Below, in pieces: positions 25,914 to 28,851 of a stretch of DNA of 64,000 bases. The DNA comes from an uncultured Actinomycetota bacterium (GTDB taxonomy: Bacteria > Actinomycetota > Actinomycetes > Propionibacteriales > Nocardioidaceae). The position numbers and the translations under genes are program-made. Numbering within the stretch: the first letter of the stretch is position 1; each line of letters starts with the position of its first letter. The stretch covers positions 8,858 through 72,857 of the forward strand of contig CAVVQG010000015.1 in assembly GCA_963750265.1 (NCBI GenBank). Reading direction: 5' to 3'. Under the pieces are notes generated by a model. It was not told where the DNA came from. It saw only the letters and a program-made list of their open reading frames with translations, and made no database searches.

Positions 25914-26064
25914 CCACGAGGAGCGCACCCGCTCCCTGACCACGAATCGGAGCACCCCGCTCATGACGAACCGATGAGTACTCCCTGATGAGTACTGACC
26001 GATGAGTATGCACGTCAACTAGTGGTCTGATCCTTCTTCGGGTCGGACCCCCCGAAGGAGAAAA
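25910..26064 (+). promoter_or_regulatory. infB leader: chain of overlapping micro-ORFs plus alternative hairpins over the infB RBS
   Basis: uORFs 25910-25939, 25963-25977, 25974-25988, 25988-26005, 26002-26022, 26022-26030; hairpins 26024-26049 versus 26033-26060 (covers AAGGAG). Confidence 0.65.
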
Positions 26065-28851
26065 GTGGCTGTAAGAGTCCACGAGCTCGCCCGCGAGTTC
26101 GGTGTCGAGAGCAAAGTCGTCCTGTCCACCCTGAAAGACATGGGTGAGTACGTGAAGTCGGCTTCATCGACCGTCGAAGCGCCCGTCGTCCGTCGCCTCA
26201 CTGAGGAGCACGGCGATGCGCTGCGCGCCCAAGGTGCCAAGAAGTCCGGTGGCAAGGCGGCGGCCAAGAAGGCTGCCCCCGCGCCGGCGGAGACCGCTGC
26301 GACCGCTGAGGCCTCCACTGAGGAGTCCGCACCCGCTGCGGAGCCCGCGCCCGCTGCGGCCGCGACCCCCGGCCCCAAGCCCGGTCCGCGCGTCGCCCCC
26401 GCACCGGAGCAGCCTGCTGCAGAGGTGCCGGCCGAGGCGCCCGCCGCAGAAGCGCCGGCCGCAGAGGTCGAAGCTCCTGCCGCGGCTTCGGACGCACCCG
26501 CCGAGACCCCTGGCGCACCCGGAGGAGCCCGTCCCGGTCCCCGTGCGCCCGGCGCTGGTGGAGCGCGTCCCGGTAACAACCCGTTCTCATCGACGCAGGG
26601 CATGCAGCGCGCCCCGCGTCCGCCTGCCGCACGCGAAGGCGGAGCACCTGCTCCAGGCGTTCCCGGCATGCCACGACCCAACCCGGCGATGATGCCGCGT
26701 CAGTCCGGCCTCGGTGGCCCTCCCACGAGCCGCGATGCGGCACGTGGCGGCCCCGGTGGTTCACGTGGTGGCGCGCCCGGCCGCGGAGCACCCGGCGGGT
26801 TCGCCGGTCGCCCCGGCGGCGGTGGAGCGCCCGGTCGCGGTCCCGGTGGAGCACCCGGCGGTGGAGGCGGCTTCGGTCCGCCCCGCAGCGGTGGCGGTCC
26901 TGCCGGTCGCAACACCCGAGGCGGAACGCAGGGTGCATTCGGTCGCGCTGGTGGTCCGGTGCGTCGTGGACGCAAGAGCAAGCGCGCCAAGCGCCAGGAA
27001 TACGACCAGATGCAGGCGCCCGCAATCGGCGGCGTCCGCGTACGCAAGGGTGACGGCGAGAACGTACGTCTGACCCGTGGCTCGTCGCTCAGCGACTTCG
27101 CCGAGAAGATCGGCGTAGACGCAGCGTCGCTCGTCGAGGTGCTGTTCCACCTCGGTGAGATCGTCACGGCGACTCAGTCGGCCAACGACGAGACGCTGAT
27201 GCTGCTCGGTGAGGAGCTCAACTACACCGTTGAGATCATCTCGCCCGAGGACGAAGACCGCGAGCTGCTCGAGTCGTTCGACCTGGAGTTCGGTGAGCAC
27301 GAGGGTGATGACGATGACCTCGCGCCCCGTCCTCCGGTCGTCACGGTCATGGGTCACGTCGACCACGGAAAGACCAAGCTCCTCGACGCGCTGCGCAGCA
27401 GCAATGTCGTCGACAAGGAGGCCGGTGGCATCACGCAGACCATCGGCGCCTATCAGGTCGCCACCGAGGTCGACGGCACCGAGCGCAGGATCACCTTCAT
27501 CGACACACCCGGTCACGAGGCGTTCACCGCCATGCGAGCCCGTGGTGCACAGGCGACCGACATCGCGATCCTCGTGGTCGCCGCAGATGACGGCGTCATG
27601 CCCCAGACGGTCGAGGCGCTCAACCATGCCAAGGCCGCGGGTGTCCCGATCGTGGTCGCGGTCAACAAGGTCGACAAGCCTGACGCCGACCCGACCAAGG
27701 CGCGCGGTCAGCTGACCGAGTACGGACTGGTCCCGGAGGAGTACGGCGGCGACACGATGTTCGTCGACGTCTCGGCCAAGGCCGGCACGGGTCTCGACAC
27801 GTTGCTCGAGTCGATCATCCTCACGGCAGACGCCTCGCTCGACCTGCGCGCCAACCCCGACCAGAACGCCGAGGGTCTCGTCATCGAGGCGCACCTCGAC
27901 CGTGGTCGCGGCCCTGTCGCAACAGTGCTGGTTCACCGCGGAACCCTCAAGGTCGGCGACTCGATCGTCGCCGGTCCGGCCTTCGGTCGAGTCCGCGCTC
28001 TGCTCGACGAGCACGGCGAGAACATCGAGGAAGCCACACCGTCGCGTCCTGCGCTGGTGCTTGGTCTCACCGCGGTGCCGGGTGCAGGTGACAACTTCAT
28101 GGTCGTCGCCGACGATCGTCTTGCACGTCAGATCGCCGAGAAGCGTGAAGCACGTGAGCGCAACGCCCTCCTGGCGCAGCGCAGCGGTCGCCGGACGCTC
28201 GAGGACTTCATGTCATCGCTGGAGAAGGGCGAGACCGACGAGCTGCTCCTCATCATCAAGGGTGACGGTTCGGGTTCGGTCGAGGCACTCGAAGATGCCT
28301 TGGCGACGATCGATGTTGGCGAAGGTGTCGCCCTGCGCGTCATTGACCGCGGTGTCGGTGCCATCACCGAGACCAACGTCATGCTGGCCGCCGCATCCAA
28401 CGCCGTCATCATCGGCTTCAACGTCCGCCCGCAGGGCAAGGCGACGGAGGTCGCTGACCGCGAAGGCGTCGAGATCCGCTACTACTCGATCATCTACAAC
28501 GCGATCGAGGAGATCGAGGCATCGCTCAAGGGCCTGCTCAAGCCGGAGTTCGAGGAGGCGCAGCTCGGCACCGCCGAGATCCGCGACATCTTCCGCTCCA
28601 GCAAGATCGGCAACATCGCCGGCTGCATGGTCACCGGTGGCGTCATCAAGCGCAACGCCAAGGCACGGCTCCTGCGAGACAGCGCCGTCGTGGCCGAGAA
28701 CCTCGACCTCGGAAGCCTGCGTCGCGAGAAGGACGATGTGTCCGAGGTCCGCGAAGGCTTCGAGTGCGGCATCGTGCTCAAGGGCTACAACGACGTCAAG
28801 ATCGGCGATGTCATCGAGACATACGAAATGCGGGAAAAGGTTCGAGCCTGA
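26065..28851 (+). CDS. infB: Translation initiation factor IF-2
   Basis: RVHELA N-terminus, [29 protein letters not shown]. Confidence 0.98.

Follow-up and report, generated by a model that had tools for sequence, protein, structure and literature searches.

The control of initiation factor 2 (IF2) levels in bacteria is less understood than that of IF3 or of release factor 2 (RF2). In the upstream open-reading frame (uORF) control of yeast GCN4, the AUU-start control of infC and the frameshift autoregulation of prfB, a translation factor's own step serves as the gauge, and for GCN4 the measured event is re-initiation after short uORFs. In leader-ORF attenuators of the ermC and cat-86 type, a ribosome on an upstream ORF picks between two RNA folds, one of which hides the Shine-Dalgarno sequence (SD). 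Here, we describe the leader of infB, the IF2 gene, in a 64,000-nucleotide stretch of DNA from an uncultured Actinomycetota bacterium (the window; contig CAVVQG010000015.1), in which a chain of micro-ORFs ends directly before two mutually exclusive hairpins, A and B, the second of which includes the infB SD. As in the ermC/cat-86 class, one arm of the regulatory stem lies within reach of a ribosome on the upstream ORF. The infB leader differs from that class in carrying at least three chained micro-ORFs, in having no conserved arrest peptide and in targeting an initiation factor, and whereas a drug-induced stall opens the site in ermC and cat-86, arrival of a ribosome at the last stop codon is predicted to close it in infB. 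Compared with GCN4, infC and prfB, no scanning is involved and the read-out is RNA refolding.

Parts of this arrangement have described counterparts. The ATGA and TGATG junctions of the chain resemble the NUGA and URRUG overlaps of termination-reinitiation (bioRxiv 10.1101/2022.06.01.494293; PMC12548453), but the infB chain ends 35–69 nt short of the gene at a switchable stem and would gate rather than deliver ribosomes. A stable stem directly after a stop codon recalls the ribosome termination structure (PMC7518266), from which the infB stem differs in that a conserved alternative pairing covers the ribosome-binding site that follows. The rimP leader attenuator likewise controls the rimP-nusA-infB operon, but it is a U-tailed terminator before rimP, whereas the infB element is internal, has no U tail and would act on translation (PMC2965389, where ermC is also mentioned). 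No account of this infB element, or of such an IF2 device, was found in the open full-text literature, where an entry in the supplement of PMC5737381 (224 RNA motifs) or in bioRxiv supplements is possible.

Micro-ORF chain and hairpin A in Actinomycetia

To compare infB leaders, 237 loci were collected from the genus, family, order and class of the window, representing part of the matching genomes; seven genomes flagged as unpublished were left aside. After removal of 29 duplicates and of one locus whose start could not be read, 207 distinct leaders remained: 75 from the genus, 21 from the same family, 45 from the same order and 66 from the same class. We term the genus Aeromicrobium because the closest named relatives of the window's YlxR are Aeromicrobium proteins (85% identity to that of A. 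panaciterrae), and "genus" in all counts means Aeromicrobium-like leaders. By this comparison, the chain together with stem A is a class-wide element of Actinomycetia, resembling ermC/cat-86 leaders without the arrest peptide. The chain, both stems, their spacing, their conservation and their covariation form the part of the model established at the level of sequence.

Chains of at least three micro-ORFs were present in 203 of the 207 leaders, and in 201 once trailing non-ATG links were dropped; ATGA accounted for 499 of 565 links, and 2–5 restart junctions per chain were retained across leaders. No such chain was found in the 18 infB leaders from other classes of the phylum that could be placed (two more were unplaceable). 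In the window's own 2.29-Mb assembly, which is 66% complete, rough script calls placed a chain of at least three upstream of only 4 of 2094 genes, infB among them; the infB leader was the sole case of an ATG-only chain of four, with two chains of three elsewhere. The GGAG that probably loads micro-ORF 1 was in position in 53/73 genus leaders and 20/21 same-family leaders. The last stop codon neither overlaps nor abuts the infB start, unlike in termination-reinitiation coupling, with a gap that falls mostly at 35–69 nt and the three frames represented 80, 77 and 44 times. The last peptides were of 131 kinds in 201 leaders, with no conserved arrest sequence or regulatory codons, suggesting that ribosome position rather than the peptide is what matters, and their Met-Ser start follows from the ATGA overlap. 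Three other loci depart from the pattern: L218 keeps the stem and SD with the chain AUGs lost, L235 has the chain with stem A absent, and L336 has no chain. The final stop of the chain was UAG in 103, UAA in 60 and UGA in 38 of the 201 leaders, the reverse of the preference in the window's own genome, where UGA accounts for 1181 of 1616 stops; UAG or UAA at this place may block a further restart or tie the last step to release factor 1 (RF1).

Hairpin A was found as originally predicted, with 10 bp, two of them G-U, and the loop UUCUUC. Folded alone it reached −16.0 kcal/mol (z −4.5), and none of 200 shuffled sequences was as stable. A stem of −12 kcal/mol or lower lay directly after the stop codon in all 205 leaders with a called stem, although its loop and length are highly variable. 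RNAalifold on 62 genus sequences returned A, and 5 of its 9 consensus pairs show two-sided changes. The spacing is constrained on both sides: counted from the first base of the last stop codon, the distance to the start of stem A is 1–7 nt in 165/201 leaders (mode 4), and counted from the last AUG it is at least 16 nt in 190/201 (mode 22). The last micro-ORF of the window, with its AUG 22 nt and its stop 4 nt before stem A, has the modal spacings of the family.

Searches for other kinds of element at this site were negative. No terminator-like site was found in 25500–26300 and the leader has no U tract after the stem, no sigma-70-type promoter was found at the infB leader, and Rfam 15 gave no leader match at E values up to 10 and no match in seven homologous loci. 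An H-type pseudoknot between the loop of A and the SD, which had been raised as an alternative, looks sterically poor, because linkers of 0 and 4 nt would have to serve helices of 10 and 6 bp.

Closing helices B and C and their predicted response to a ribosome

Hairpin B was also confirmed, with 10 bp, one of them G-U, and an 8-nt loop, and its exclusion of A holds at the level of bases, since the two share 26033 and 26040–26042 and the loop of A supplies the 5′ arm of B. By itself, B is only modestly above chance (−14.8 kcal/mol, z −1.8; 8 of 200 shuffles as stable). The original prediction had named conservation and covariation of stem B beforehand as the point on which it could fail, and within the genus both were found. 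With a ribosome footprint reaching 12 nt past the last stop, B formed in 63 of the 75 genus leaders (neither helix in 10, helix C in one, both in one). Pairs were counted by a script anchored on the SD, as the MAFFT alignment misregisters the anti-SD columns. At the pair matching G40-C53, the 35 distinct B types comprised 12 G-C, 10 G-U, 7 A-U, one U-A and 5 unpaired, several of which resemble one-base bulges. The combination A-C never occurred: the 12 rows with A face U in 11 cases, A in one and C in none, while 22 of the 56 rows with G face C. On a tree built without the hairpin, the A state at this 5′ position needs 9 changes. The base in the 26040 region of the window is under two constraints, because it also closes A. 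Duplexes of B with their own partners averaged −18.4 kcal/mol against −17.5 with swapped partners (0 of 5000 permutations, kinship uncorrected). The reading of B as a by-product of a UUCG loop was rejected: among 74 loops of A in the genus, folding gives C(UUCG)G for 1, and a further 5 can be so read. That B arose independently in four same-family leaders was unsupported, as one clade with the genus was not rejected (p-AU 0.18).

Stem B is lineage-specific rather than class-wide, which limits the prediction that had placed it at the centre of the switch. At the same footprint, only 5 of 131 leaders outside the genus formed B; a different helix, C, formed in 114, both in one and neither in 11. 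Helix C pairs the 3′ arm of A with infB codons 3–6 and encloses the SD and the start codon. Outside the genus, helix C duplexes with their own partners reached −19.4 kcal/mol compared with −16.1 for swapped partners; the same test within the genus gave no signal (−9.7 and −9.7). Codon 5 of IF2, an arginine, is CGG in 69 of 96 non-genus leaders versus 299 of 2263 arginine codons further down infB. In Aeromicrobium, where the IF2 N-terminus is MAVRV, the GGUCCG partner of helix C is lost. Thus, by sequence comparison, B and C replace each other as closing helix, one or the other forming in 184 of 206 leaders, and Aeromicrobium and a few other lineages appear to have lost C and to use B in what folding predicts to be the same logic. 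A second set of 80 loci gave, after 21 duplicates and 6 unplaced, 53 new leaders, several of them near-identical. Of these, 52 were chained, 42 being closed by C and 10 by B, with none lacking both. One such locus, L322, whose IF2 starts MAGKAR, has its own perfect 10-bp B. The class-level locus L217, with a mycobacterium-like IF2 start, shows a third architecture, in which the SD is covered by a short stem and the partner of A's loop is the region around the start codon; its closing polarity is the same (+5.4 kcal/mol).

We modelled a ribosome as a masked footprint and scored the cost of opening positions −12 to +15 of the infB start, since an SD-only accessibility measure overlooked helix C and a window of −20 to +13 mixed up A with the binding site. 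In the window, a 30-nt footprint ending at 26028, 26030 or 26032 gave a predicted P(B) of 1.00 with the SD paired in all seven fragments folded, in line with the proposal that a ribosome at the last stop melts A and frees B; barring the anti-SD from pairing returned SD openness to 0.45–0.82. Masking to 26032 raised the SD opening cost from 0.7 to 7.7 kcal/mol, the top shift among 995 sites with AGGAG plus a start in the same genome. Across leaders, a footprint to 10 nt past the stop raised the opening cost by at least 2 kcal/mol in 168 of 206 and lowered it as much in 4, while the same mask placed 14 nt earlier raised it in 23 of 206. In the second set, the cost rose by at least 2 kcal/mol in 44 of the 52 chained leaders. 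A like mask on 600 of the 775 SD-bearing genes of the window's own genome raised the cost in 56 and lowered it in 176. Median costs in the genus were 8.0 kcal/mol free and 15.8 with a terminating ribosome; across leaders they were 6.4–9.8 and 15.8–17.5, and an initiating ribosome altered little. A small stem over the infB start codon (26065–26081) is predicted in both states in the window and many genus relatives, and infB codon 4 is the rare AGA in 68/75 genus leaders.

The reach of the ribosome assumed here is consistent with footprints in Mycobacterium tuberculosis, which extend 15 nt beyond start codons and 12 nt beyond stop codons (PMC9094748); the latter offset fits the limit of 26032 originally assumed for a terminating ribosome. 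With these offsets, an initiating ribosome on the last AUG would be clear of A and a terminating one would cover its 5′ arm. Taken together, these folding predictions indicate that arrival of a ribosome at the last stop probably closes infB, and the strongest argument for a switch of this polarity is that two unrelated helices share it.

Proposed mechanism and competing explanations

We propose that the infB leader is a translational attenuator in which efficient IF2-dependent restarts turn IF2 synthesis down, to which we assign a probability of about 0.5. Ribosomes would load at the first SD and pass along the micro-ORFs by termination-reinitiation, each junction being a step dependent on IF2 and fMet-tRNA, so that the share reaching the end of the chain would rise steeply with initiation capacity. 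An initiation complex on the last AUG, with its footprint to +15, is predicted to spare and favour A and to leave the SD open, and while A stands infB would be translated by fresh initiation. Once a ribosome has come to the last stop or close to it, folding predicts that the 5′ arm of A melts, whereupon B (or C) would bury the infB ribosome-binding site. The need for IF2 and fMet-tRNA would be compounded over serial restarts, and infB would be shut by those ribosomes that complete the relay; closure might also expose early infB to Rho. Of the negative feedback originally suggested, the closing polarity is well supported by the comparison, and IF2-dependent re-initiation as its signal is an inference. 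In Escherichia coli, re-initiation rises with IF2 overexpression and falls with IF3 overexpression (PMC2268962). Expression of the chain is supported by M. tuberculosis, for which Supplementary File 1A of PMC9094748 lists a putative leaderless ORF, MSTP, with its start 89 nt upstream of infB and a peptide identical to that of micro-ORF 1 of L217. In that species micro-ORF 1 begins on the ylxR stop (ATGA), and rows 923–924 of the same file give both ORFs as leaderless, implying that an internal transcript starts where the chain begins.

Several points weigh against this proposal. The leader counts are descriptive, carry no significance test and come from related, non-independent sequences, and at the third base of the arginine codon in helix C only 43 of 70 arm/codon types pair. 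The earlier view of A as the ribosome-free state agrees with the open genus median and not with the free RNA of the window, where P(A) ranged from 0.01 to 0.78 over seven fragments and P(B) was 0.93–0.99 in the three longest; B prevails there because the 5′ arm of A meets weak upstream partners. With a ribosome on the last AUG, P(A) was 0.61–0.90 when pair span was limited and 0.01–0.11 without a limit, so that an open default state is not robustly predicted for this window. Stem A contains the last stop in 10 of the 75 genus leaders, where a +12 footprint hides the anti-SD too and neither helix forms; closure in these would need to come a codon or two before termination. A ribosome on the GTG-GTC-TGA mini-ORF, present in 29/75 genus leaders including the window, would melt both stems. 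IF3 and formylation also alter re-initiation (PMC2268962), so the signal need not be IF2. In M. tuberculosis Ribo-RET, the infB start is listed as undetected, and a later micro-ORF start was not found in the accessible tables (PMC9094748), a negative that is weak because no more than 1669 of the 3898 annotated ORFs were recovered there.

The same switch and polarity could serve another signal, such as how long a ribosome dwells on the last stop, or overall ribosome flux (release factor, recycling by RRF/EF-G, IF3, fMet-tRNA or ppGpp). We regard this as unlikely. In its favour, UAG or UAA ends the chain in 163 of 201 leaders against the UGA preference of the genome, the stop-to-stem distance is tightly conserved, and IF3 overexpression lowers E. 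coli re-initiation (PMC2268962). One uORF would suffice to read dwell, however, yet 2–5 junctions are kept, the last AUG is positioned just beyond reach of A, and the regulated gene is that of IF2 itself. Rather unlikely is positive control, in which infB is closed at rest by B or C and depends on the chain for opening: a ribosome would either favour A from the last AUG or cover the anti-SD after restarting on GTG-GTC-TGA. The long free fragments of the window, mostly in B and shifted to A by a ribosome on the last AUG under limited pair span, fit such control, as do a footprint to 26036, which reopens the SD (unpaired 0.33–0.71), and the undetected infB start in M. tuberculosis (PMC9094748). 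Across leaders, however, the free state is the more open one and an initiating ribosome alters little; the mini-ORF occurs in only 1 of 132 leaders outside the genus, the gap from stop to infB start is mostly 35–69 nt in all three frames, and helix C lies entirely beyond the footprint of a ribosome at the last stop.

A ribosome need not be the effector if an operon-encoded protein (YlxR/RnpM, NusA or IF2) binds stem A and tips the balance between A and B or C, with the micro-ORFs only shielding the leader from Rho or nucleases. The position of ylxR, a member of an RNA-binding-protein family, directly 5′ of the leader favours this, and overlapping ORFs in M. tuberculosis accompany less Rho-dependent termination (bioRxiv 10.1101/2022.06.01.494293), but the loop and length of A vary while its distance to the stop is near-fixed, a constraint expected of a switch driven by ribosomes but not of a protein site, and we consider this explanation improbable. 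Finally, B and C replace each other and B covaries, neither of which is explained by a static insulator, in which A is a ribosome-termination structure against sliding into infB and B is a by-product or mere SD damper; the scarcity of C(UUCG)G loops also counts against it. Stable stems right after stops have been described as insulators (PMC7518266) and B alone has a z of only −1.8, and still this explanation seems very improbable to us.

Features of the locus and significance

From the ORF list and family matches, the gene order in the window is rimP, nusA, ylxR, infB, rbfA. The features of the leader and its neighbours are collected in Table 1. No 16S match was found in the window's assembly (66% complete), hence the organism's own anti-SD was not read from it. 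RNA runs contained small shares of the stretch, at most 0.14. A nine-codon ORF (MTTRSAPAP, 25910–25939) overlaps the ylxR stop with its start codon (ATGA), and 23 nt separate its end from micro-ORF 1; it sits in an apparent imperfect 26-nt duplication of the TGACCACGA/GGAGC module, outside the conserved chain. A 12-bp inverted repeat (25972–26001, 83% complementary), made up of the AGTACT repeats in micro-ORFs 2 and 3, is present in the predicted free fold.

Table 1 Positions of the infB leader elements and flanking genes in the window
Feature	Position	Strand	Basis and remarks
ylxR/RnpM-like gene	25608..25913	+	ORF list; RnpM-family match weak, below cut-off; neighbour 5′ of infB
GGAG, likely SD loading micro-ORF 1	25949..25952	+	Sequence; conserved placement
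Micro-ORF 1 (MTNR)	25963..25977	+	Stop overlaps next start (ATGA)
Micro-ORF 2 (MSTP)	25974..25988	+	Joined to next via TGATG
Micro-ORF 3 (MSTDR)	25988..26005	+	Joined to next via ATGA
Last micro-ORF (MSMHVN)	26002..26022	+	TAG stop 26020–26022
Possible extra two-codon ORF GTG GTC TGA	26022..26030	+	TAGTG overlap, on 5′ arm of A; not conserved
Hairpin A 5′ arm (anti-anti-SD strand)	26024..26033	+	Folding, covariation; within the predicted footprint of a ribosome on the last stop
Hairpin A 3′ arm	26040..26049	+	26043–26050 is the loop of B; outside the genus the arm pairs with infB codons 3–6 (helix C)
Hairpin B 5′ arm	26033..26042	+	Anti-SD in the loop of A plus first three bases of its 3′ arm
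Hairpin B 3′ arm	26051..26060	+	Includes SD GAAGGAG (26054–26060)
infB (IF2, 928 aa), GTG start	26065..28851	+	ORF list; IF-2 family, 759 bits

What is new from this window is the B form and the replacement of C by B, and this swap is comparative evidence for selection on the switching logic and not on one helix. Tentatively, and at somewhat less than even odds, Actinomycetia may autoregulate IF2 by a bacterial counterpart of GCN4 control, in which the chain would count IF2-dependent restarts, a switch would lie over the infB start, and the closing helix would have been reinvented (B for C) with the logic kept. The Aeromicrobium form is the handiest for testing, as mutations in its closing helix, all of which lies 5′ of the start codon, would leave the IF2 codons intact. 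The leader offers a precise, testable model in a cloneable element of about 100 nt that is kept across the class, including Streptomyces and mycobacteria.

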